DNA from: Nitrosopumilus sp.
GTDB lineage: Archaea; Thermoproteota; Nitrososphaeria; Nitrososphaerales; Nitrosopumilaceae
Assembly: GCA_965249555.1 (NCBI GenBank)
Contig: OZ252243.1
Span: forward strand, 2,048,001 to 2,112,000
Reading direction: 5' to 3'
DNA length: 64,000 nucleotides
How positions within the stretch are numbered: position 1 is the stretch's first letter; every line of letters begins with the position of its first letter. Below are positions 4,226-30,556 of the stretch, piece by piece. The notes beneath the pieces are model-generated. The model did not search any database. It worked only from the letters and a program-made list of their open reading frames with translations, and was not told the origin of the DNA. The translations under genes and the position numbers were made by a program.

Positions 4226-4675
4226 TTAGAATGTCTTCATCAAAAATCTTGCAGTTTTTTCATGCATTTCAGATACTCTGTCCATTGCATCAAAAACTGT
4301 CTGTTGGTTGATGTTTTCTTTATCATCTAATACAAAATAAACCCCAATCTTTTGTTTGCCATCTTCAGTGATAATTTTGTTAATGGCATGAATTGAATTG
4401 CAAAAGTCAGCTACTTTTTTTGCAAATTTTTCTTTTTCTTCTTCATTAAATCCTAAATATCTTGCAATTTGGTTATTTTTCATTATTGCTTTTGCTCCTA
4501 CTACTATGACCCCTGATTGTGCTTTTGGTTCAAATATTTCCACAGGAATTCCGTATTGACCTGCATGTTTTACTAGAATTTGAAAAGAGTTTTCCGGATT
4601 TTCCACTTCTTCAAAAGAAAGGCCTTCATGAATTAACCATCTTTCAATATTGTCTCGCATTCTTGATACACTCAT
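4226..4675 (-). CDS. DUF2299-like conserved archaeal protein
   Basis: IERWLIHEGL N-terminus; probable start MSVSRMRD. Confidence 0.7.
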   Translation of the reverse strand: MSVSRMRDNIERWLIHEGLSFEEVENPENSFQILVKHAGQYGIPVEIFEPKAQSGVIVVGAKAIMKNNQIARYLGFNEEEKEKFAKKVADFCNSIHAINKIITEDGKQKIGVYFVLDDKENINQQTVFDAMDRVSEMHEKTARFLMKTF

Positions 4676-4740
4676 AATAACACCTACAAAACAAGTTCTA
4701 TATGATTCTAAATTCAAATGACTACTAGTCTCAATTTATG

Positions 4741-19979: not shown

Positions 19980-21063
19980 TAGCGAAGAGTCAAAGTTCGT
20001 GAACTAAAAATCATCAAAACACTTTTTGATCACCACACACAATGAAACACATGGACAAGTTAGAACAGCTTGAAGCAGCATACAAAAAGGAAAACTCCAA
20101 AGATATAGTCAGGATGCTTGCAGTACTAATGGTTCTCAAAGAGGGTAAGGAATTAGAGTACGCACAAACACTACACCGCTGTACAAACTGGGTACGCAAA
20201 TGGGTTGATCGTTTTAAAGTAGATGGCCTATATGATCACCCAAGGAGTGGAAGACCATGTGTAATCCCAAAGAAGCAAATGGATTCTATTATGTTCAAAA
20301 TTATGTTGACACTATTTACACCTGTAATGCTGCAGCAGACAATATTTGATTCTACTGGAATAAAATTTCACATAACACATGTCAGAAAAATAATGCACCA
20401 GTATGGAATGTATGGAATGTCTGCTAAAACTGCACAAAAATATCACGTCAATCATGCAAGTGTAACAGCTGTGCGCAGCTGGGCAGCAACGCATGAAAAA
20501 GAGAATTCCACACCTAAAAAAGAGTGGATTCACCATTGCAATGCTTGATGAGGCATTCTTTGTTAGGGATGTAAAGGCAGGACGAAAATATTGGTCACCA
20601 GTTGCCAAAAGAATATTTCTCCCATATGTGGGAAACCATGAAAGTTTGGCAGTGTATGGAACAATTACAATCAATGGAGACCAACTGTTTAGAATTTATA
20701 AAAAATTCAACGGTATAACATTTGTAGAATATCTAAAAGAGCTACACTACAAATATGGTAAAATTGCGTTGATACTTGACAGGGCATCAGTGCAGCAATC
20801 AAAGAAGGTCAGGGACTTTTTGACAGATAATCCAGATGTTAAACTGATTTGGCTACCAAAAGGACCCACCATATCTAAACATGATAGAGCAGTGTTGGAA
20901 AATAGGCAAGCATGTGTTGTTGGTATCAGAATATTATGCAATGTTTGCAATAATGAATAATGCAGTGTCACAATACTTTGGAACAAAAAAATTCAAACTT
21001 GATGTTGTTAATTATATTTTTAGAAATCCTGCAAAGATGTTCACGAACTTTTGATCGTCGCTA
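19980..21063 (+). mobile_element. IS630-family element, copy 1 (frameshifted transposase)
   Basis: Imperfect TIRs TAGCGA..AAAGTTCGTGAAC; flanking TA; HTH ORF (DHPRSGRP) plus DDE ORF (LDEA, ILDRAS). Confidence 0.9.
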
Positions 21064-21258
21064 TACCATCACCCTCCTTTTTGATCAAATTGCCTGATCT
21101 AGCGGAATGCTCCCATTTGCCATCTATGTGGTATTTTGTTTTCCGCTCACTTTGAGTTAGTCTGTGTAACGCCCTTGTACATGGCAGTAATAATTCAACT
21201 CTCAGGCCCAACAGTAGGTATACATCACAAGATATGAAAAAGATTTCGTATAACGTCT
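21064..21258 (-). ncRNA. IS110 family B left end / bridge-RNA-like region; transposase cut off by IS630
   Basis: Near-identical to 44217-44410. Confidence 0.75.
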
Positions 21259-21350
21259 GTTAAGAGATTGATCATCAGAAACTGGGGGGCCTAAATACAT
21301 CAGGAATAATGAAATGGAATTGATTTTATACTACGTTTGATCAAAATATA

Positions 21351-21578
21351 ATGATGAAACCAAAAAGCAAACTCTCTTTTACAGTATGTAGTGAAGATGA
21401 AGGTGGATTTAGTGCACAATGTATTGAATTTCCAGGAATTATAACTCAAGCTGATACAGAGTCTAAACTCACAGAAATGATGACTGATGCAGTAAATGGC
21501 TATTTTGAATCCTTTCCAGAAGAACGAAAGAGATTACAAAACATAAAGAAAAATAAAGTGATAGAGATCAGTGTCTAA
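21351..21578 (+). CDS. hicB: HicB-family antitoxin (short form)
   Basis: EDEGGFSAQCIEFPGIITQADT. Confidence 0.88.
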   Translation: MMKPKSKLSFTVCSEDEGGFSAQCIEFPGIITQADTESKLTEMMTDAVNGYFESFPEERKRLQNIKKNKVIEISV

Positions 21579-21783
21579 AAAACTACCAATTCTATCATCT
21601 AGAGATATTCTGAGAATACTGCGCAGACACAAATTTTGGCAAACTGGACAGACTGGTAGCCATATTTTTATGACTGATGGAAAGCACAAGGTCACAATTC
21701 CACAAAGAAAGGAAATGAAGAAAGGGACTATGATATCCATAATTACACAGTCAGGATTAACACGAGAAGATTTTCTCAAATAA
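21571..21783 (+). CDS. hicA: HicA-family toxin
   Basis: QTGSHIFM, VTIP, KKGTMISIITQSGL; overlaps hicB. Confidence 0.9.
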   Translation: MSKKLPILSSRDILRILRRHKFWQTGQTGSHIFMTDGKHKVTIPQRKEMKKGTMISIITQSGLTREDFLK

Positions 21784-21963
21784 TGGATATCACATTTTAT
21801 GTCAAAAACTATCTTATGCCTTTTGAACACATCATCAACTGCTCAACACTATCGGAGACATTTCAAACCGATGTGATAATTGTCAAATACTGTGGTGATA
21901 TTCGGTTGATTTGCTAGAATGGGTTTTGAACAGAAGAGTTATACCATTATACTCAAAACTGAT

Positions 21964-21999
21964 GTATGTATTGATTTGTGCGTGAAGGTTGATACATAC
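21964..21999 (-). mobile_element. 36-bp miniature IS66 derivative
   Basis: Reverse strand GTATGTATCAACCTTCACGCACAAATCAATACATAC = first 29 nt of the IS66 at 24451 plus TACATAC. Confidence 0.7.
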
Positions 22000-22011
22000 T
22001 TCACATGGATA

Positions 22012-23095
22012 TAGCGACGATCAAAAGTTCGTGAACATCTTTGCAGGATTTCTAAAAATATAATTAACAACATCAAGTTTGAATTTTTTTGTTCCAAAGT
22101 ATTGTGACACTGCATTATTCATTATTGTAAACATTGCATAATATTCTGATACCAACAACACATGCTTGCCTATTTTCCAACACTGCTCTATCATGTTTAG
22201 ATATGGTGGGTCCTTTTGGTAGCCAAATCAGTTTAACATCTGGATTATCTGTCAAAAAGTCCTTGACCTTCTTTGATTTGTGCACTGATGCCCTGTCAAG
22301 TATCAACGCAATTTTACCATATTTGTAGTGTAGCTCTTTTAGATATTCTACAAATGTTATACCGTTGAATTTTTTATAAATTCTAAACAGTTGGCCCCCA
22401 TTGATTGTAATTGTTCCATACACTGCCAAACTTTCATGGTTTCCCACATATGGGAGAAATATTCTTTTGGCAACTGGTGACCAATATTTTCGTCCTGCCT
22501 TTACATCCCTAACAAAGAATGCCTCATCAAGCATTGCAATGGTGAATCCACTCTTTTTTAGGTGTGGAATTCTCTTTTTCATGCGTTGCTGCCCAGCTGC
22601 GCACAGCTGTTACACTTGCATGATTGACGTGATATTTTTGTGCAGTTTTAGCAGACATTCCATACATTCCATACTGGTGCATTATTTTTCTGACATGTGT
22701 TATGTGAAATTTTATTCCAGTAGAATCAAATATTGTCTGCTGCAGCATTACAGGTGTAAATAGTGTCAACATAATTTTGAACATAATAGAATCCATTTGC
22801 TTCTTTGGGATTACACATGGTCTTCCACTCCTTGGGTGATCATATAGGCCATCTACTTTAAAACGATCAACCCATTTGCGTACCCAGTTTGTACAGCGGT
22901 GTAGTGTTTGTGCGTACTCTAATTCCTTACCCTCTTTGAGAACCATTAGTACTGCAAGCATCCTGACTATATCTTTGGAGTTTTCCTTTTTGTATGCTGC
23001 TTCAAGCTGTTCTAACTTGTCCATGTGTTTCATTGTGTGTGGTGATCAAAAAGTGTTTTGATGATTTTTAGTTCACGAACTTTGACTCTTCGCTA
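22012..23095 (-). mobile_element. IS630-family element, copy 2 (inverted relative to copy 1)
   Basis: Same length and lesions as copy 1 with few substitutions; TA flanks. Confidence 0.9.
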
Positions 23096-23247
23096 TATCA
23101 ACCTTCGCGCACAAATCAATAGCTATATGTGAATACAAAAAGAAGGAATTCAGATAGCATAAAAAATGAACCCAGGTTCAGGACTCGTAATTCATCGTCC
23201 TCAAAGAAAAGTCCAAAGAGACAGATTAGGGGGAAAAAGACAAGGGC

Positions 23248-24231
23248 ATGTATGTTGGCATTGACTTGCACAAGAAATTTCTTCAAGTGGCAACAATGGA
23301 TAATGACGGAAAGATATTACAAAACATAAAAGTTGAGAACACTCATGAATCAATCAGGAAACATTTTACAGACATACAGATTCATGCCAATATTGTCATG
23401 GAATCATCATCAGTATAACACGTATGGATTTCTTACAGATGAATTGGGATACAAAAACGTGACACTCTCAAACCCGTATCTTACAAAGACAATAGCCGCA
23501 TCAAAAAAAACAGACAAGATTGATGCCAGGATACTGGCAGATCTTTTGCGTGGAGGATACATTGCAACATGCCATATTCCAAACAAAAAGATAGTAAAAC
23601 ATCGCCAGCTGGTAAGATACAGAAAAAAACTCATTCAGTGGAGAACATCTCTCAAAAATTCTGTCCATGGAATTTTGTTACAGGAGGGAATCAAGATACC
23701 CGGAGTCACATTCACTGTAACATACAACAAAAGACTCACCTCCCTAGGTGACTATCGCATAGATGGATTTGTACGACAGATAGACTATCTTAATCTGCAA
23801 ATTGCAGATATTAATTCAAGAGTGTATGCTGCTGTAAATGCCAGTCCTGATGCCATGATAATAAAATCAATACCCGGAATTGGTGACTACTCGTCACTAG
23901 TTATCGCATCAGAAATTGCAAATATTAGCAGATTCAATGACTCTCACAAGTTATGCGCATATGCAGGAGTCGTGCCATCAGTCAGAAACTCTGCAGATTA
24001 CACCATGGCAGCATAACCAAAAGAGGAAGCATGACACTACGATGGGTCCTTATCCAATGCGTCCATTCTCATGCAATACATGCCAAGAACAGTGACATTA
24101 CAAAATTTTACAATCGCATTAAAAAGAAGAGAGGCTCATCAAAAGATGCAGTTGCCGCATCATCCCAGATTCTGTGAGTGATTTACTGGATGCTAAAAGA
24201 GAGGAGAGAATTTGTACAGAATTACAGTTAG
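23248..24231 (+). pseudogene. IS110-family DEDD recombinase/transposase, disrupted
   Basis: MYVGIDLHKK, VMES, KTDKIDA, IPGIG, YAGVVPSVRNS, GSITKRG; stops and frameshifts. Confidence 0.9.
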
Positions 24232-24397
24232 GACTGCAAGTCGCGTTTGGTATGTTGAGGGACAAGCCTCGGTTGATAACTGCGAATAGGTCCTAACGAA
24301 GGGATGAAGATAGCATTGAGGAAGAAGCCTCGTATGGATACATGTCCGTCATCTTTTGTTTGAAAGCATTCCCTAGCGAAAGCTATGCCTTGGGATG
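24227..24397 (+). ncRNA. Bridge/seek-RNA-like structured RNA of family A
   Basis: Two stem-internal loop-GAGG/CCTC hairpin domains whose loop strands match the target and donor; TAGC-GAAA-GCTA hairpin. Confidence 0.8.
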
Positions 24398-24450
24398 TAA
24401 AAAAGTAGGAAATGTATAAAAACAATTCACATGGATACATACCTAAACAG

Positions 24451-25913
24451 GTATGTATCAACCTTCACGCACAAATCAACACTATTACACAAAAAGATCT
24501 AAGATCAACTAAATCATCATACAAAACATGTCAGGTTGTGGTCATGAGAAAATCATCATACAGCTACAAAAAAAGACAAAACAACAAGACGAAGTGATAA
24601 AACAACTACAAGCAGAGATAAAACAACAAAAACTAATCACAGGGAATCTCATAGAATCAAACAAGGAACTACAAAAAAGACTGTCATATTATGAGAATGC
24701 GCACTCTCCGCCATCAAAGAATTCCCTTGAATGGAGAAAGCAAAAAAGACAACACAGACAGCCAGGCAAATCAAGACGTGGTGGAATAGCAGGACACGTT
24801 GGCAAGACACAGAAATTCAGACCAACTAGCACCAAACACCACAGATCAGATGCATGTCCCAAATGCGGTAGTGAAAATATTCATCAAACCAAAACCTGCA
24901 AAAGGATAATGGTTGAGATTCCTCCACCAACACCCTACGGTATAACTGAGCATGTTTTGAATCAATACATCTGCATGGACTGTTCTGATAATTTTCAAAC
25001 CACGGGAAACCTTCCACTACATGGATGTTTTGATGGTTCAGTGATACGTGAGGTAGTCTCACTGTTCTCAAAGAGATTGACATACGATGCTATCAGAACC
25101 ACACTCTATGAAAGATATGGATTAGAAATCAGCAATACAACCGTACAATCCATTCTTCGCAACGGTAGTGTGATGTTAGAGTCATTTTACAATGACATCC
25201 ACAGCGAAATCGTGACTGAAAAGATTCTCGGAATCGATGAGACCGGATTTTCAATTGATGGAAATACTGGATGGATGTGGGTTGCAAGAAGCAAGACTAG
25301 TGCACAGTATGCCTTGGAGTACAGCAGAGGTGCCAATGTTCTAAAAAAGTACTGGAAGAAATTCAAAGGAACCCTAGTGTCTGACGGATATGCTCCGTAC
25401 AGGACAGTATTTTGTGATAACACAAAGCAGAGATGCACCGCACACCTGCAGCGCGATGCCAAATATCTGGCAATAAAATCAAAGGACAAAAAGGCCAGGA
25501 TTCTATATGAGAAACTCTCAGGGATGCTAGGTCATGCCAGGGTTTGGAGTGTAGGTAATCGTCATACAAAACGGCGGGAAACGTACAGGAATGATTTACT
25601 AAAACAGCTGGACCGTATCATTGCACGATATTTGAAAGGTGATACGGAGATGGTTCAGTTTGGCAAGAAGCTAAAGACTGCAAGGAACAGCATGTTTACG
25701 TTTGTCATGGATGGTGATGTCCCGTCAACTAACAATGATGCAGAGAATTCCATTCGAAAGTGCGTGATGCAGAGGAATGTTCGCGGGCAGATGAAGAGTG
25801 ATCAGGGCATGAGGATGATCTCAGTCTTTCTCACATGCTTTGAGACATGGAGAATAAGGGAATTGAACATGTTTTCTGAGATGGCAAAATACATCTAAGT
25901 GCTTAATACATAC
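24451..25913 (+). mobile_element. IS66-family element (single-ORF type)
   Basis: TIRs GTATGTATCAA / TTAATACATAC; 8-bp direct repeat CTAAACAG at 24443-24450 and 25914-25921. Confidence 0.92.
24528..25898 (+). CDS. tnpC: IS66 TnpC-like DDE transposase, apparently intact
   Basis: Coiled coil, HSPPS, CPKCG, IDETG, SDGY, QRCTAHLQR, TNNDAENSIR. Confidence 0.92.
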   Translation: MSGCGHEKIIIQLQKKTKQQDEVIKQLQAEIKQQKLITGNLIESNKELQKRLSYYENAHSPPSKNSLEWRKQKRQHRQPGKSRRGGIAGHVGKTQKFRPTSTKHHRSDACPKCGSENIHQTKTCKRIMVEIPPPTPYGITEHVLNQYICMDCSDNFQTTGNLPLHGCFDGSVIREVVSLFSKRLTYDAIRTTLYERYGLEISNTTVQSILRNGSVMLESFYNDIHSEIVTEKILGIDETGFSIDGNTGWMWVARSKTSAQYALEYSRGANVLKKYWKKFKGTLVSDGYAPYRTVFCDNTKQRCTAHLQRDAKYLAIKSKDKKARILYEKLSGMLGHARVWSVGNRHTKRRETYRNDLLKQLDRIIARYLKGDTEMVQFGKKLKTARNSMFTFVMDGDVPSTNNDAENSIRKCVMQRNVRGQMKSDQGMRMISVFLTCFETWRIRELNMFSEMAKYI

Positions 25914-25952
25914 CTAAACAGTTATTTATATAGAAATTTAGTAATTGAGTAT

Positions 25953-26222
25953 ATGATGTCAGCAATGCATCAAATGCAATACACTGGATTCACAACAACC
26001 ATGTTAGCTCTTGAACCAACTGCAACTGATACTGAAGTCTATTTTGTAGAATTAAAACAAGATGAAGATGGACGTTTTGTTGCTACTGTTCCAAAATTAC
26101 CTGGTGTTGTAACTGATGGTGCTACAGAAGATGAAGCATTAGATAATGTTAATGATGCAGTTCAAGCCATGTTAGAAGCTAAAGGATTAAAGCAACAGTT
26201 TATTCTTATCAGTGTTTCATAA
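25953..26222 (+). CDS. hicB: HicB-family antitoxin
   Basis: DEDGRFVATVPKLPGVVTDGATEDEALDN; start uncertain. Confidence 0.88.
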   Translation: MMSAMHQMQYTGFTTTMLALEPTATDTEVYFVELKQDEDGRFVATVPKLPGVVTDGATEDEALDNVNDAVQAMLEAKGLKQQFILISVS

Positions 26223-26229
26223 CGTCGTA

Positions 26230-26451
26230 TTGCCTAAGTTACCACGACCTTCTACTAGAGAATTAGCAGCTTTTCTAAATACTCAAGGTTACACTTTGGA
26301 TCATTCAAGAAAACATCATGTTTTTAAAAATAGTGCAGGAGCAATGGTAACTGTTCCTGAAAGACAAGAAATAGGAACTGGATTACTGATGGCAATATTG
26401 GCTGAAATTGGTTGTAGTAGAGATGATTTTATGAAATGGTGGCAAAAATAA
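26230..26451 (+). CDS. hicA: HicA-family toxin
   Basis: LPRPSTRE, KHHVF, VTVP, EIGTGLLMAIL. Confidence 0.85.
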   Translation: MPKLPRPSTRELAAFLNTQGYTLDHSRKHHVFKNSAGAMVTVPERQEIGTGLLMAILAEIGCSRDDFMKWWQK

Positions 26452-26497
26452 ACTCAAAAAGCATAGAACATATAATTCAGTGGGGTAAAACCTTGAT

Positions 26498-26953
26498 ATG
26501 ATTCCTGAAGAAGAAATTCGAAACAACCTTGTTGATATGGGATACATATTGGCAACACCAAGAGCACTTTTTCCAAGTTATTACAAATTGAATGATGGAA
26601 CTATTGCTAGAGCATTAATCAACATAAATTATCTGATCGCCGATCCACAAGCTCCACAGGGTTTTGCAGTAAACCAAACCAATTCCGTTACTGCATTTGT
26701 ACCAAAAGAAAAGCGACATCCTGAATTATTTCAACCATATAATACTGCAGAGTTATTGAAAGACCCTATAGATGAAGATGTGGAATTTGAAGTTTTACGA
26801 GAAAACTTTAGCGTTTATGATCTCAGTAATGATATGATTCTTAGTGTTAAGACAGTTGTAGGTCAAATCATAAAATCAAAATATCATACTAGAGACGGAG
26901 AACCAATCTATAGTATTAACACAAATCCAATCATCAAAGCAAAAAAGAAATAA
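26498..26953 (+). CDS. Hypothetical protein with an internal two-fold repeat
   Basis: YKLNDGTI and YDLSNDMI halves; co-oriented with hicBA. Confidence 0.7.
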   Translation: MIPEEEIRNNLVDMGYILATPRALFPSYYKLNDGTIARALININYLIADPQAPQGFAVNQTNSVTAFVPKEKRHPELFQPYNTAELLKDPIDEDVEFEVLRENFSVYDLSNDMILSVKTVVGQIIKSKYHTRDGEPIYSINTNPIIKAKKK

Positions 26954-27038
26954 AATAGAATTTTTTAGGCATGAGACATATTCAAAATCATTGTTAATTA
27001 AAAAAGAACGTCAATTTCTTACTGAAAAAACGTATGTA

Positions 27039-27544
27039 TCCATGTGAATTGTTTTTATACATTTCCCACTTTTTTACATCCAGAGGAATAGCTTTCGCTA
27101 GGGAATGCTTTCAAACAAAAGATGACGGACATGTATCCATACGAGGCTTCTTCCTCAATGCTATCTTCATCCCTTCGTTAGGACATATTCGCAGTTATCA
27201 ACCGAGGCTTGTCCCTCAACATACCAAACGCGACTTGCAGTCCTAACTGTAATTCTGTACAAATTCTCTCCTCTTTTTTAGCATCCAGTAAATCACTCAC
27301 AGAATCTGGGATGATGCGGCAACTGCATCTTTTGATGAGCCTCTCTTCTTTTTAATGCGATTGTAAAATTTTGTAATGTCACTGTTCTTGGCATGTATTG
27401 CATGAGAATGGACGCATTGGATAATGACCCATCGTAGTGTCATGCTTCCTCTTTTGGTTATGCTGCCATGGTGTAATCTGCAGAGTTTCTGACTGATGGC
27501 ACGACTCCTGCATATGCGCATAACTTGTGAGAGTCATTGAATCT
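27039..27544 (-). mobile_element. IS110 family A, 3' part including the ncRNA end
   Basis: Near-identical inverted copy of about 23930-24435; again abuts TACATAC. Confidence 0.88.
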
Positions 27545-27680
27545 CCCATACGAAATCGTCTCCAATTACTACGGACACTTTTTAGCGTGCTTTGCTGAAT
27601 CAGGACATCTCAGATATGCCTTGCATCTTATACTTTTGTTGTGTCAGTTCATGATTTTGTGTACGATACACTTTCAGAAT
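27543..27680 (-). mobile_element. IS110 family B right end, joined to family A transposase sequence
   Basis: Matches 50126-50262; sub-terminal GATTTCGTAT. Confidence 0.75.
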
Positions 27681-27713
27681 TGCAAAGAGAAGAGGAAGTG
27701 GAAATGTGTGTGC

Positions 27714-28113
27714 TCATCTTTTCCCAATCTTGCCCCGGATAAACCGGTACATCTTCTCTGCTGATTTTTTTGGTATTGCATCAATTGTACCGTTTGTGTT
27801 TCTTCCCCAGAAGATGTGATTCCTTTCACTCTTTGACATTTCCGTCATTCCCCTCACAAAGAAGACCAGCGATGATGAGAACAGTCCCTTCTCCAGTCTG
27901 ATGTTTGTGATGGTATTGTAATAGTACTCTTCAATGTTTTCCCCAAAGCCCAGCCGTATCAGGTTTCGGATAATTACCCTCTTTTCTGTAAGATATACGG
28001 TGTTTGGGTTGATTAGTGCCGCACCACCGGGCAGTACCCTTGACTGTCTTGCAGACATTATTAGTCTCGCCAGAATCCAGCCGGTCTCTGATCTTTTCTA
28101 CCTCTGAGCTCAT
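27714..28113 (-). pseudogene. PH-domain (bPH-like) protein, frameshifted
   Basis: VYLTEKRVII, YNTITNIRLEKGLFSSSL; split over two frames; visibly more GC-rich than the core genes. Confidence 0.65.
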
Positions 28114-28359
28114 GATGTACCCTGTATGTTTTGTATAAAAGGTATATCTTGCAGTTTAGGGCAGCACACCAGATATAAGATCCTGGATTATCTTGTATGC
28201 CCCAAGCAGCGCATCATGTAACATGTCATATGATATGGCAAATACTCCCGTATACCACAGGACTATCACTATACCAAGAAACACACAGAGCTTGAGAATC
28301 CCCCACATGTATACATACAATACAATCCGTTTTTAACTGGGTTGAATGGAATTTTTGGC

Positions 28360-28464
28360 ATGAACAAGCGTCTCGTAATGGTAGGTGTACTTTTAGGGAT
28401 TATAGTTACATTTGCAGTAATTATTGGCTCACCTGCATTAGGTGGATTTGATACTTTACGATAA
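28360..28464 (+). CDS. 34-aa single-TM protein
   Basis: MNKRLVMVGVLLGIIVTFAVIIGSP... read manually. Confidence 0.5.
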   Translation: MNKRLVMVGVLLGIIVTFAVIIGSPALGGFDTLR

Positions 28465-29595
28465 TCACCCAAATTTAGTATGTGCTTTTTCAAAAATTTC
28501 AAGCGTTTTTTCAATATCTACCTTTGATAACCACGCAGTAACAGAAATTCTCAATCTTGCTTGATTTTTTGGAACTGTAGGGTATCTAATTGGTTGTGCA
28601 AATACTCCATTATTAAACAAAAATTCTCCAAAGTCCATTGCTGACTTTTCATTTCCGATAATTATTGGTATGATATGTGTTGGAGAATTTGTCTCATATC
28701 CAATTTGTCTCAATCCTTTTGAGAGTTGTTTGACATTTTTTTCTAGCTTTTCCTTTTGTTTTTCTCTGTTTGATTCAAATCTTTTCAGGGAATGTTCAAT
28801 CAAAAATGAAGGAAGTGCAGATGTGTAAATAAATGATTTTGATTTGTTAATACATAAATCAATCACATTATTTTGTGATGCAACATATCCTCCAAATGAT
28901 CCTAGCCCTTTACTTAGACTACTAATATACAAATCAATTTTTTTTGCAACATTGAAATAATTTGGAGTTCCTTTCCCGTCTTCTCCAATAACAAAATCCC
29001 CGTGTGCATCATCTACAATAGTAATTGCATTTGTTTTTTCTGAGATCTCAGTTATTTGTTTTAATAATGAAAAATCTCCATCCATACTAAATATTCCTTC
29101 AGTGATTACAACTTTGTTTTTCCCATTCTGCTTTAGTTTCTTTTGTAAATCCTGCATATCATTATGTTTGTAAATTAAAACTTTAGCATCTGATAATTTA
29201 CATGATTCTATAATACTTGCATGGTTTAACTCATCACTTAGAATCAAATCGCCTTTTTTTACAATTGAAGAAATTGCCCCAAGATTTGCCATGTATCCTG
29301 TAGGGTAAACTAAACTGTTTTGTTTTGATTTATGTTTTGCAAGGATATCTTCTAATTTTTTGTATGATTCATCATTTCCAGAAACAAGTCTTGAACTTGA
29401 CTGAAGCTGTTTAAATTGAATCTTTGTTGTTGTAATTCCAAGATAATCATTTGAACATAAGTTGAGAAGTTTTTTACCATTAATTGTAATATGTGAATCT
29501 TTTACCTTACCGTATCGTAATTTTCTGTAGAGGTTGTTTTGCTTAATTTTACCTATCTCTGAATCAATAAAGTCTAGTTTATGCTTTGAGACCAA
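28465..29595 (-). CDS. bioF: 8-amino-7-oxononanoate synthase
   Basis: SNDYLG, SDELNHASII, FSMDGD, DDAH, SLSKGLG. Confidence 0.93.
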   Translation of the reverse strand: MVSKHKLDFIDSEIGKIKQNNLYRKLRYGKVKDSHITINGKKLLNLCSNDYLGITTTKIQFKQLQSSSRLVSGNDESYKKLEDILAKHKSKQNSLVYPTGYMANLGAISSIVKKGDLILSDELNHASIIESCKLSDAKVLIYKHNDMQDLQKKLKQNGKNKVVITEGIFSMDGDFSLLKQITEISEKTNAITIVDDAHGDFVIGEDGKGTPNYFNVAKKIDLYISSLSKGLGSFGGYVASQNNVIDLCINKSKSFIYTSALPSFLIEHSLKRFESNREKQKEKLEKNVKQLSKGLRQIGYETNSPTHIIPIIIGNEKSAMDFGEFLFNNGVFAQPIRYPTVPKNQARLRISVTAWLSKVDIEKTLEIFEKAHTKFG

Positions 29596-30556
29596 TTTTC
29601 TCTATCATTTTAAGGTCTTTTTTAGCCTCATTTCCATCCATCGTCAGATATCCTGCAGTGATAATCCCATTTGCACCACTTTGAAGTAATTCTTCACCAG
29701 AATCATCAAGATTTGTTTCTCTTCCACCAGAAATTTTGATGACTGATTCTGGTAAGAGAAATCGGATCACAGAAAACATTCGAATAATCTCTGAATTAGA
29801 TAACTCTGTTTGCAATTCAAGTGGAGTTCCAGGCATTGGCACTAACATGTTAATTGTCACTTCTTCAGGGTATAGTCTGGATAATTCTAATGCTAACTCT
29901 CGTCTCTGTTCTCTTGTTTCTCCAAGTCCGATAATTCCCCCAGTGCATAACTCTAATCCTGCATCTCTTGCAATTTTTAATGTCTTTAACCTATCTTCAT
30001 ATGTATGCGTAGTACAAATTTCGGAAAATTTTGATTTTGCAGTCTCCAAATTATGGTTGTATCTTTTTACTTTGAGTTCTTTTAGCTTTTTTGCTTGTTC
30101 TTGTGTTAGAAAACCTAAACTACATTCTATAGTTATTCCAACTTTATCATTAACTTCAATAATTATTCTACATACTTTATCAAAATCTTTTGGTGATGGT
30201 TCTCTCCATGCTGCAACTAGACAATATGATTCGGCACCTTCATCTTTTGCTTTTTGAGCTTTTTCAACTATTTCTTCAGGTGTAGGTAATTGGTATGTTT
30301 CAATTCCTGTATCAAAAAAAGCAGATTGTCCACAAAATGTACAGTCTTCACTGCATGCATTTTTTTTAATATTGTTTAACTGCTCCACATCTACCCTATC
30401 TCCATTAAAATCCCTGGTGATCTCATTTGCATAACTTGCTAAATCTTTTAGATTTTCATCTGGAATATTAAATAATTTTTCAGCATCTTCTGATGATATT
30501 CCAATTCCAGAAAATACTTTTTCCTGACACTCTTTGATAAACTCTAGAGTATTCAC
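29579..30556 (-). CDS. bioB: Biotin synthase
   Basis: CSEDCTFCGQS radical SAM motif, YNHNLET, CTGGIIG; start uncertain. Confidence 0.96.
   Translation of the reverse strand: MNTLEFIKECQEKVFSGIGISSEDAEKLFNIPDENLKDLASYANEITRDFNGDRVDVEQLNNIKKNACSEDCTFCGQSAFFDTGIETYQLPTPEEIVEKAQKAKDEGAESYCLVAAWREPSPKDFDKVCRIIIEVNDKVGITIECSLGFLTQEQAKKLKELKVKRYNHNLETAKSKFSEICTTHTYEDRLKTLKIARDAGLELCTGGIIGLGETREQRRELALELSRLYPEEVTINMLVPMPGTPLELQTELSNSEIIRMFSVIRFLLPESVIKISGGRETNLDDSGEELLQSGANGIITAGYLTMDGNEAKKDLKMIEKIGLKA

Follow-up and report, generated by a model that had tools for sequence, protein, structure and literature searches.

Positions 23120–24437 of the 64,000-nt stretch of DNA analysed here (the window) are a broken, decayed copy of an IS1111-type element of the IS110 family; all features lie on the forward strand unless stated otherwise. 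We estimate a probability of about 0.85 that this element moves by recombination guided by a bridge or seek RNA whose target loop would be directed at the terminal repeat of IS66-family insertion sequences. The sequence complementarity, the covariation and the distribution of junctions on which this reading draws were observed directly. An IS1111-type RNA of this kind, aimed at the IS66 repeat, had been proposed in a first-pass annotation of the window, and the family profiles, covariation, junction enrichment and a relative in another genome with the guide TGATTCATAA all agree with it. The host genome is 2.23 Mb in size and Nitrosopumilus-type; the archaeal origin supposed at that stage is supported by the archaeal AmoA that it encodes and by homologous loci carrying Nitrosopumilus names.

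BLAST searches of the genome returned nine full and approximately 30 partial copies of the element with 90–95% identity, and a comparison of 21 left ends and 29 right ends among these copies set its boundaries. In the window copy (copy 1) the TA core dinucleotide is found at both borders, 23120–23121 and 24436–24437; the left end reads TAGCTAT, and the right end, ...CACATGGA-TA, stops at 24437 and is followed by CATAC (24438–24442). TA borders all 21 left ends and 27 of the 29 right ends, the other two right ends being TC. Fourteen left ends start with TAAC and seven with TAGC, with G as the third element base; the left flank AATCAA is also present at seven of the 21, each time paired with the TAGC start. 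Subterminal inverted repeats of 8 bp, located 7 and 5 nt from the element ends, are conserved in all copies, and direct reading places them in copy 1 at 23127–23134 (ATGTGAAT) and 24425–24432 (ATTCACAT); repeats of 7–17 bp are given for IS1111 elements in PMC11208160. As expected of an IS1111 element, insertion is site- and orientation-specific, no long target duplication is made, and the two borders carry the same dinucleotide. The layout is also that of IS1111, with a short left end of 129 nt and a long 3′ non-coding end, which measures approximately 260 nt in the window copy. In the intact copy L001 it measures approximately 206 nt: the ORF begins 129 nt into the element and stops at 1425, with the element boundary at 1631.

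A second copy in the window (copy 2, 27037–27544, reverse strand, identified by BLAST) comprises the 3′ 508 nt of the same element, including the predicted bridge RNA (27112–27251; 179.7 bits with covariance model R1) and the right end at TA 27037–27038, which adjoins GTATG at 27032–27036. It is interrupted at element position 811 by another repeat, with an identical junction in six copies. Direct reading of the sequence recovered every motif that the first-pass annotation had placed in it. Both right ends in the window do abut TACATAC, as had been described, yet this arrangement is not general and holds for 16 of the 29 right ends in the genome. A circle junction was not found in the genome, the homologous loci or the metagenome contigs; assemblies rarely retain such molecules. 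For the copy at 282102–283432, the contigs of four sequencing runs span both junctions and none skips the element, and therefore no empty allele was seen there, contigs as short as these being no proof either way.

The recombinase gene of copy 1 (23248–24177) is split into at least three frames with stops, as ORF fragments at 23248–23418, 23333–24016 and 23953–24177, in agreement with the disrupted transposase noted earlier. Three of the nine full copies retain an intact 331-aa ORF. The intact homologue P0001 (331 aa) carries a DEDD_Tnp_IS110 domain (PF01548) at residues 3–148 (E = 2.9e-25; score 89.3 bits, cut-off 29) and a Transposase_20 domain (PF02371) at residues 207–292 (E = 1.6e-21), and the presence of both profiles places the protein, as judged from its sequence, in the IS110 family. 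It also contains GVVPSVRNSA, which fits the motif G--P----S(G/A) as set out in section 6 of PMC11187229, the serine being followed by A and not G. P0001 matches the IS621 and ISCro4 structures by sequence with an E-value of about 1e-13, and its alignment with IS621 spans GIDxxK, the E of MES, and TDKIDA.

Folding of the 3′ non-coding end gives the two stem-loop domains that had been anticipated. The target-binding domain (24227–24297), delimited by folding and by covariance model R1, has an outer stem in which GTTAGGAC (24227–24234) pairs with GTCCTAAC (24290–24297), an inner stem (24241–24247/24278–24285) and an apical hairpin (24256–24271). The donor-binding domain (24299–24357) is closed by a stem (24299–24306/24350–24357) and has its apical hairpin at 24317–24332; the GAGG/CCTC apices of the two domains lie at 24257–24270 and 24318–24331. 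Both domains were recovered in an alignment of 80 model matches, 46 of them distinct, from other Nitrosopumilaceae genomes, and the stems covary across these homologous RNAs. Compensatory changes were found in 16 of 33 stem pairs, which are altered on both sides (five, three and two pairs in helices 1–3 and three each in helices 4 and 5), a count reached by none of 500 shuffles; paired cells amount to 95.9% across the 80 matches vs. 34–46% in slid controls. As this alignment (A4) was fitted to the model, the pair counts lean towards structure. An Rfam search of window positions 20000–30000 at E-values up to 1 gave no known RNA family, its sole match being a chance one to SNORD31.

The strands of the donor loop spell the joined ends of the element itself, as first suggested: ATAGC (24310–24314) pairs with GCTAT of the left end, and ATGGATA (24334–24340) corresponds to the right end plus core. 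Among the 80 matches the loop and the ends change together, with right end ATGGA accompanied by guide ATGGATA in 43 and ATAGA by ATAGATA in 27, and left end ACCAT accompanied by guide ACCAT in 11. Against left ends of the commoner TAAC type, the guide ATAGC has a mismatch at their first base. The CATGT stretch after ATGGATA was considered as a handshake guide for the target and rejected; it does not follow the right flank in other families.

Read together, the strands of the target loop give GGTTGA-TA-CATAC, the sequence at the tip of the inverted repeat of IS66. The 5′ strand, which contains GTATGT at 24250–24255, holds the putative right-target guide TTTGGTATGT (24246–24255), whose reverse complement ACATACCAAA matches the flank A-CATAC-CTAA; the 3′ strand holds the putative left-target guide GGTTGATA (24271–24278), which has the top-strand sequence of the repeat tip, GGTTGA, together with its TA core. 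At the copy starting at 709347, located in an IS66 left repeat, the left guide matches in all eight positions; the IS66 holding this copy is a fragment of 264 nt only. In copy 1 an IS66 left repeat reaches the left end with its inner 22 bases (TCAACCTTCGCGCACAAATCAA, 23098–23119), a junction shared by six other loci that have the full 29-nt repeat and differ in upstream sequence. The CATAC at 24438–24442 is then the outer five bases of an IS66-type repeat tip, severed from the repeat by the insertion; in the 16 right ends with TACATAC, unrelated sequence follows. That so many right ends run on into CATAC might also mean that CATAC is part of the element, its ends having been misdrawn and no target being recognised. 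We regard this as very improbable: 13 of the 29 right ends are without CATAC, several of these have a guide that changes with the flank (CATAT, CAATCATAA, ATTAC, ATC), and at the left junction of the 709347 copy the remainder of the IS66 repeat, ...GAAGGTTGA, comes right before TA.

If the loops act as guides, the guides of individual copies should be found to follow their flanks, and covariation of this kind was observed. When the right guide was compared with the right flank of its own copy in the 21 copies of the genome, the summed run length was 111 vs. a shuffled mean of 73.5, with none of 20,000 shuffles as good. The copy at 282102, for instance, has the guide reverse complement ACAATCATAA and the right flank A-CAATCATAA, its whole target reading GATTTT-TA-CAATCATAA; five of the 21 copies match their own right flank by two bases or fewer. 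The left guide did not track the left flanks within this genome (46 vs. 44.7; 7269 of 20,000 shuffles as good). In other genomes, where one representative was taken for each unique guide, both guides tracked their flanks (right, 147 vs. 104.6 for 23 guides; left, 74 vs. 47.9 for 12 guides; 0 of 20,000 shuffles in each case). The guide columns are also the most variable part of the element, at 11 of 16 vs. 196 of 1320 columns (Fisher 2.1e-6) and, in a second comparison, 13 of 16 vs. 57 of 244 (Fisher 4.4e-6). Site choice by protein-DNA contacts, with loop complementarity as a by-product, would fit the negative left-guide test within the genome and the fact that the role of the RNA here is read from sequence. 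It is hard to reconcile, and in our view highly unlikely, with guides and flanks that co-vary within and between genomes at 53–86% protein identity, with the concentration of variability in the guides of an otherwise 90–95% identical element, and with the RNA requirement established by experiment for family relatives (abstract and sections 6, 9 and 13 of PMC11187229; passages of PMC11208160).

The distribution of insertions likewise points to RNA guidance towards IS66. The 13-mer GGTTGATACATAC occurs 46 times in the genome vs. 0.1 expected from composition, and 36 of these lie at BLAST-defined IS66 copies. Twelve of the 21 left junctions fall in IS66 sequence, at four distinct sites, while IS66 makes up 1.9% of the genome (binomial 5.5e-16); only three are at the canonical repeat-tip site. 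The genome holds 12 guide pairs, the commonest one and 11 others, several of which aim at three further sites inside IS66. For the pairs TCAACT/TAATGATTTT and GTCAAT/TTGTAATTAG the best IS66 matches (12/13) are exactly at two of the observed left-junction sites, with only five and three of 400 random segments, respectively, scoring equally. The same scan gives no score for the repeat-tip site, part of which falls outside the IS66 element. A relative with 76% identity in another genome has the guide TGATTCATAA, aimed at the tip of the IS66 right repeat. Of its 14 distinct loci, 12 have (T)TGATTCATAC after the element; one of these lies directly after an IS66 transposase gene, and others are in IS66-type miniature elements. 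Relatives in sister genomes are directed either to the right repeat of IS66 or to other IS110 elements, at their left end. TT replaces the TA core in 15 of 26 IS66 right repeats, which might reflect escape of the prey from the guide. The target word with the TT core reads GCTTGATTCATAC.

It could be argued that the RNA is a true bridge RNA for which IS66 is not an evolved prey, the guide specifying (T)GA-TA-CATAC and IS66 ends being merely its commonest carriers. Of the six full copies whose right flank is CATAC, three do have non-IS66 left flanks (CTCAATGA, ATCATATAA and CCGTCA), 28 of 67 TGATACATAC words lie outside BLAST-defined IS66, and most perfect IS66 sites are empty (46 GGTTGATACATAC and 11 GCTTGATACATAC sites counted as empty). 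We nevertheless consider such an incidental association unlikely, since the match of the loop strands to the IS66 repeat runs over 13 consecutive bases, beyond its 7-base tip, other guide pairs target three more IS66 sites at which junctions are present, and the guide of the relative in another genome follows the variant tip TGATTCATAC.

The complete IS66-family element at 24451–25913, downstream of copy 1, is an independent neighbour and not the copy hit by the element. It begins with the left end GTATGTATCAACC at 24451, has an 8-bp duplication, CTAAACAG, on both sides and contains one ORF only (24528–25898; Pfam DDE_Tnp_IS66, 5.5e-41); the accessory genes of classical IS66 are presumably absent from it. 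Perfect 8-bp duplications flank 21 of the 26 full IS66 copies in the genome. In the window and at genome position 2221607 an IS66-type left repeat starts exactly 8 bp past the TACATAC that follows the IS110 right end, as would be expected if IS66 inserted beside IS110 ends and the association were the reverse of the one proposed. This is the least probable of the alternatives, with next to no weight in our assessment: the IS66 duplications are their own, the IS110 junctions split the repeat internally at TA, and at 709347, 502031 and 1345526 the IS66 sequence is continuous up to TA.

With RNA-guided insertion into IS66 as the preferred reading, the recurrent left junction AATCAA-TA-G, found in seven copies, is not fully accounted for. 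The difference between this flank and GGTTGA had been explained by wobble pairing; the guide would indeed pair with it through four exact and four wobble positions of eight, but a sibling guide, GGTCAATA, fits AATCAA better. Descent of the TAGC left ends as a single clade was rejected, as a tree and an alignment of the 21 left ends show TAGC copies interspersed with TAAC copies, and simple descent is therefore no explanation. As a working idea, the AATCAA-TAGC insertions may have been made by a sub-lineage with the left guide GGTCAATA, after which recombination between copies swapped their 3′ parts. Such an exchange of 3′ parts could be the reason why the right flank, 170 nt from the guides, alone still tracks them. 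The target word with AATCAA reads AATCAATACATAC.

Upstream of copy 1 the window contains further pieces of mobile elements. A 36-bp mini-element (21964–21999, reverse strand, direct reading) consists of the 29-nt IS66 left repeat and the tip TACATAC, which meet at a TA; the genome has no second example of it, and an 8-bp duplication is absent. Next to it lies the short right-end remnant noticed before, TTCACATGGA (10 nt, 22000–22009), which does adjoin a TA (remnant plus TA, 22000–22011, direct reading). An IS630-like element with a TA duplication (22010–23097, reverse strand; terminal repeats, Pfam DDE_3 at 5.9e-12 and HTH domains), present as 18 BLAST pieces in the genome, is inserted in the IS66 repeat remnant, and once it is removed, the right-end remnant adjoins TCAACC of the repeat at 23098. 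At least six copies of the IS110-family element are solo 3′ modules that keep only the 3′ 508 nt with RNA and right end, and these derive from one junction that they have in common, where a second IS110-family element (element X) is lodged at position 811. For the suggestion that the hybrid end formed by insertion into IS66 may stay mobile we found no support, as the hybrid lacks flanking 8-bp duplications: none of the six intact left 8-mers before its IS66 repeat recurs after any right-end CATAC, vs. the regular duplication of ordinary IS66 copies. Mobilisation of the hybrid by the IS66 transposase was therefore rejected; the one complete hybrid, at 2210570–2211904, lies between TTGTGTGT and GTTAATGT.

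We propose the following mechanism. The element would leave as a circle in which ...CACATGGA-TA is joined to (A/G)CTATATG..., and the 331-aa DEDD/Tnp recombinase, intact in three siblings of copy 1, would bind the RNA from the 3′ non-coding end; we infer that this RNA is made, bound by the protein and directs catalysis. The donor loop would pair with the joined ends (AUGGAUA to the bottom strand, AUAGC to the top strand) and the target loop with GGTTGA-TA-CATAC (GGUUGAUA to the bottom strand, (U/G)GUAUGU to the top strand). With this pairing and strand exchange at TA, the commonest guide pair would therefore put the element seven bases inside the IS66 terminal repeat, in one orientation.

A comparable situation was reportedly described by Partridge and Hall in 2003 for IS4321/IS5075, IS1111-type elements with subterminal repeats that insert in one orientation at a fixed point of another mobile element, within its terminal repeat. 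The element described here shares its type, its subterminal repeats and its fixed position in another element's terminal repeat with these, and differs in the archaeal host, the IS66-family prey, the 12 guide pairs at several sites and the 13-base target word with a TA core. ISEc11, ISPa11 and ISKpn4 of the IS1111 family use seekRNA (Siddiquee et al. 2024, PMC11187229). As in these elements, a non-coding region lies downstream of the transposase, which has 330–350 aa and G--P----S(t)G according to section 6 of that paper, and the top-strand match of the RNA is 5′ of the bottom-strand match, the two overlapping in the target (section 9). Identity to them is low, at the level of family profiles only, the serine is followed by alanine, and the RNA is a prediction. 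Like IS621 and ISCro4, as presented by Durrant et al. 2024 (PMC11208160) and Hiraizumi et al. 2026 (PMC13626964), the element would have an RNA with a target and a donor loop, each reading both strands around the core dinucleotide, and a protein with DEDD RuvC-like and Tnp domains. It differs from both in having the predicted RNA in the right end and not the left, TA and not CT as the core, long subterminal repeats, and a protein related to theirs at an E-value of only about 1e-13. Small-RNA modules apart from complete elements are also described for ISPpu9 of Pseudomonas putida (IS110 family) in PMC12288879, although the solo modules found here go back to their common junction with element X. 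A literature search on IS110 in Nitrosopumilus and other archaea and on bridge RNAs with IS66 gave no description of such a case; the tables of PMC11208160 and PMC11187229 with predicted RNAs and targets of ISfinder entries may include archaeal members.

It is well supported that a known bridge system is here aimed at other mobile elements in archaea, with natural guide diversification that is unusually rich. Bridge recombination has been worked out in few bacterial elements, and this genome constitutes a natural experiment in an archaeon, in which near-identical copies differ mainly in their guide letters and the insertion sites record the action of each guide. It offers ready guide-target pairs for deriving the rules of programmability, i.e., the TA core, the tolerated mismatches and the unequal weight of the guide strands, and the compact 331-aa recombinase, intact in three copies, is a mesophilic marine archaeal orthologue for tool development. 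More tentatively, and with a good deal less confidence, archaeal bridge-RNA elements might form a guide-diversifying hyperparasite population living on other insertion sequences. If so, guide turnover and prey escape would amount to an arms race between mobile elements, and the mini-elements joined precisely at TA would be what RNA-guided excision leaves behind once copies have recombined. The genome also presents a case in which to study how mobile elements prey on each other and thereby shape genomes with high insertion-sequence loads.

The home genome, a single contig of 2.23 Mb with 34% G+C, encodes an archaeal AmoA (E 1.5e-117), and the public loci homologous to the element carry the titles Nitrosopumilus sp., Nitrosopumilaceae archaeon, Nitrososphaerota archaeon or Cenarchaeum sp. 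An archaeal host is therefore supported; two of the homologous loci coincide with same-genus genomes from the search for relatives. The motifs named in the first-pass annotation were all found where it had placed them. Between 21964 and 27544 of the window, four kinds of insertion sequence are piled up: a 36-bp IS66-derived mini-element (21964-21999), a 10-nt right-end remnant (22000-22009), an IS630-like element with a TA duplication and DDE_3 and HTH domains (22010-23097), 22 nt of an IS66 left repeat (23098-23119), the IS110-family element (copy 1; 23120-24437), CATAC (24438-24442) and a complete IS66 (24451-25913) with CTAAACAG on both flanks and a DDE_Tnp_IS66 match at 5.5e-41. A gene pair at 25953-26451, with a Pfam match of 3.6e-06 for the HicB-like antitoxin and 2.7e-07 for the HicA toxin, separates this IS66 from copy 2, which is 5′-truncated and lies on the minus strand (27037-27544).

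BLAST revealed nine full-length and about 30 partial copies of the element in the home genome at 90-95% identity. The 331-AA open reading frame is intact in three of the nine full copies and broken in the window copy, in agreement with the earlier view that the transposase there is disrupted. The intact product, P0001, matches DEDD_Tnp_IS110 (2.9e-25) and Transposase_20 (1.6e-21), as well as the sequences of the solved IS621 and ISCro4 recombinases (1.5e-13 and 2.7e-13), and contains GVVPSVRNSA, compatible with the G--P----S(G/A) motif described for these transposases by Siddiquee et al. (PMC11187229). The element has a short left end, 8-bp subterminal inverted repeats, TA at each border and a 3′ non-coding end, which measures about 206 nt in L001, an intact copy, and some 260 nt in the window copy; this is the layout outlined for the IS1111 group in PMC11208160 and PMC11187229. 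In a sister genome, the copy with 85% identity (L010, G015) is itself split at 4610-4740 (genome coordinates) by a short element whose terminal repeats are of the IS630 type.

Folding of the window-copy 3′ end as a single sequence gave the two domains that had been proposed. A ten-copy fold produced the same consensus with no compensatory changes, because the stems are invariant within the genome; for this reason a covariance model was built for other genomes, from five gap-free copies and a hand-written structure taken from the single and ten-copy folds. Searched against 74 loci from other genomes, the model gave 80 matches, every one full-length. Sixty-eight lie directly behind a recombinase gene, 11 upstream of it and one on the opposite strand. 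In the alignment of 46 distinct rows, which was fitted to the model and so is biased toward the structure, 95.9% of cells pair, vs. 34-46% with partners slid, and the pairing values were matched by 0 of 500 shuffles. Changes on both sides were seen in 16 of 33 stem pairs, with at least two such pairs in each of the five helices. Despite the model-fitted alignment, the slid controls and double changes are still strong evidence for the RNA structure.

The donor loop varies in step with the ends of the element itself. At the right end, ATGGA occurs with the guide ATGGATA (43 matches) and ATAGA with ATAGATA (27 matches). At the left end, ACCAT is accompanied by the guide ACCAT in 11 matches; in 30 matches the left end ACTAT occurs with a guide that reads GCTAT, the core-adjacent base being mismatched. 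At a distance of 15 nt from the right end there is an outward-facing TATA-like word, which is TATAAAAA in the window (24415-24422) and elsewhere TTTAAAAA; judged from its sequence, it could drive transcription through the abutted ends of a circle.

The IS1111-type elements IS4321/IS5075 are known to insert within terminal repeats that belong to other transposons. Joined together, the two strands of the target loop in the window copy read GGTTGATACATAC, the reverse complement of IS66 bases 1-13, and 12 of 21 left junctions lie within IS66 sequence, which makes up 1.9% of the genome (binomial 5.5e-16). The proposal that the target loop is programmed against the IS66 terminal repeat is thus supported. 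The window-copy guide pair is identical in 8 of 22 copies, with one change in three more. The 12 junctions are spread over four sites: the repeat tip, with 709347 lying in a left repeat and 502031 plus 1345526 in right repeats; AAAA-TA-CATCTAAAG, which lies 20 nt into the right repeat (left junction 1950019, with 733912 and 724917 as right junctions); AATCAA-TA, where the left repeat has its inner edge (seven left junctions); and GATCAAC-TA-AATCAT in the 5′ leader (729404). The guide pair TCAACT/TAATGATTTT fits the 5′-leader site, and GTCAAT/TTGTAATTAG the inner-edge site, at 12 of 13 positions each, scores equalled by only 5 and 3 of 400 random segments, respectively. For the site 20 nt into the right repeat, the fit of GGTAAT/TGTTAGATGT (11/13) is weak, as 40 of 400 random segments score equally. 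At the same time, 46 + 11 perfect tip sites are unoccupied, and so either activity is low or insertions have been lost.

A relative with 76% protein identity in another Nitrosopumilus genome carries the guide TGATTCATAA and is placed before (T)TGATTCATAC at 12 of 14 distinct loci; an IS66 transposase gene (54.7% identity) precedes it at one locus and IS66-type miniature elements of about 100 bp at others. Targeting of IS66 ends therefore recurs, with a guide suited to another repeat variant and another cut position. The IS66 right repeat (window 25900-25913) is itself polymorphic exactly at the IS110 core: the 26 full copies in the home genome comprise 15 with GATTCATAC (TT for TA), five with GCTTGATACATAC, five with GCTTAATACATAC and one with GATGAAATACATAC. 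The TT-core repeats may represent escape from insertion. The guide of the relative in the other genome fits the TT form.

Twenty-two copies in the home genome keep the target loop, with 12 different guide pairs. Guides are enriched in variable columns both among the nine full copies (11/16 vs. 196/1320 elsewhere; Fisher 2.1e-6) and among 21 copies (13/16 vs. 57/244; Fisher 4.4e-6). In the 21 copies that keep the right end, we matched the 5′ loop strand, as its reverse complement, against each copy's own right flank; the summed match was 111 vs. 73.5 for shuffled pairs, and 0 of 20000 shuffles equalled it. Guide (as reverse complement) and right flank read ACAATCATAA and A-CAATCATAA in copy 282102, ACATACAAAA and A-CATACAAAA in copy 533297, ACATATAA in both for copy 194526, and TAATTAC in both for copy 2220177; in 5 of the 21 copies the match was two bases or fewer. 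Within the home genome the left guide did not track the left flanks (46 vs. 44.7; 7269 of 20000 shuffles equal or better), and good fits were confined to copies 709347 (8/8) and 283432 (7/8). Across genomes, with each unique guide represented once, matches exceeded the shuffled values for right guides (147 vs. 104.6; 23 guides) and left guides (74 vs. 47.9; 12 guides), with 0 of 20000 shuffles in either case. The guide-flank covariation that the first-pass annotation proposed to test thus holds on the right side in the home genome and on both sides across genomes, but not on the left side within the home genome.

The right flank lies 170 nt from the guides and the left flank 1.1 kb. Seven left ends begin with TAGC, each after a full IS66 left repeat ending AATCAA, and the other 14 with TAAC; in the left-end alignment the TAGC copies do not form a clade. 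We infer that a sub-lineage made the TAGC insertions and that 3′ parts were later exchanged by recombination among the roughly 40 copies. Such recombination would explain the mosaic left-end alignment, and the exchange of 3′ parts would explain why the right flank alone still tracks the guides. The earlier reading of AATCAA as a wobble match to the window-copy guide is numerically right, but AATCAA also fits the left guide GGTCAATA of three copies, four of the pairs being exact and two G-T. Copy 1247675-1250087 is flanked by AATCAA-TA and TA-ATCATATT, and both flanks fit the guides GTCAAT/TTATGATTAG carried by copy 1194764-1196063.

In the 36-bp mini-element (21964-21999) and a 54-bp one at 506636 of the home genome (about 506580-506640), a TA links the IS66 left repeat either with the repeat tip or with the site that lies 20 nt into the right repeat. 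No 8-bp duplication was present around either, and they may be footprints of precise excision from chimeric copies. For the suggestion that the hybrid of IS66 left repeat, IS110-family element and TACATAC is mobile through the IS66 transposase, no support was found. In TTCACATGGA-TA-TCAACC (22000-22011 plus 23098-23103), TA connects the 10-nt right-end remnant to position 8 of an IS66 left repeat, in the orientation opposite to guide expectation. Three tandem IS66 copies at 2202955-2207296 of the home genome have the 8-bp spacer gttttatg in common. At two places (window 24436-25921; home genome 2221600-2221650), exactly 8 bp separate an IS110 right end with TACATAC from the IS66-type left repeat that comes next, and in the window these 8 bp are present again beyond IS66. 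At 2221507 of the home genome, an IS66 right repeat is fused to IS110-element position 1218 via the shared word GATACAT, which is present in both the IS66 repeat tip and the donor loop.

Six copies of the first element, window copy 2 among them, are joined at position 811 to another member of the IS110 family, element X. In the window X lies at 27545-27681 (minus strand), with more left ends at about 21258, 37030, 44217, 60427 and 61973. It encodes a protein with about 36% identity to P0001; 37 right ends terminate in CGATTTCGTATGGG and 25 left ends begin with AG-ACGTTATACG. Its flanks are usually ...TTACAC-AG-AACC, to which the site in the first element, AG-ATTC, is a near match. In other Nitrosopumilus genomes, one RNA family with guides GAAACTATA / TTTTCACAT (fetched loci L040, L044-L046, L091, L076, L077, L093-L095, L099 and L102, at about 812-1006 or 2204-2349) is placed at TAACTA-TA-TGTGAATA, within the left end of other IS110 elements, a case of one bridge-RNA element aimed at another.

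The mechanism class is already known: bridge RNAs of IS110/IS1111 elements (PMC11208160), seekRNAs (PMC11187229) and the excision cycle (PMC13626964) have been described, and 662 archaeal IS110 recombinases are catalogued (10.1101/2024.06.21.599552). Supplementary tables aside, we found no published account of these Nitrosopumilus elements, nor one in which IS66 is the target. What stands out is the number of natural guide variants within one genome, the four target sites in a single prey element, IS66, and the nesting of element in element, with X at position 811 of the first element and with relatives whose target is the left end of other IS110 elements.
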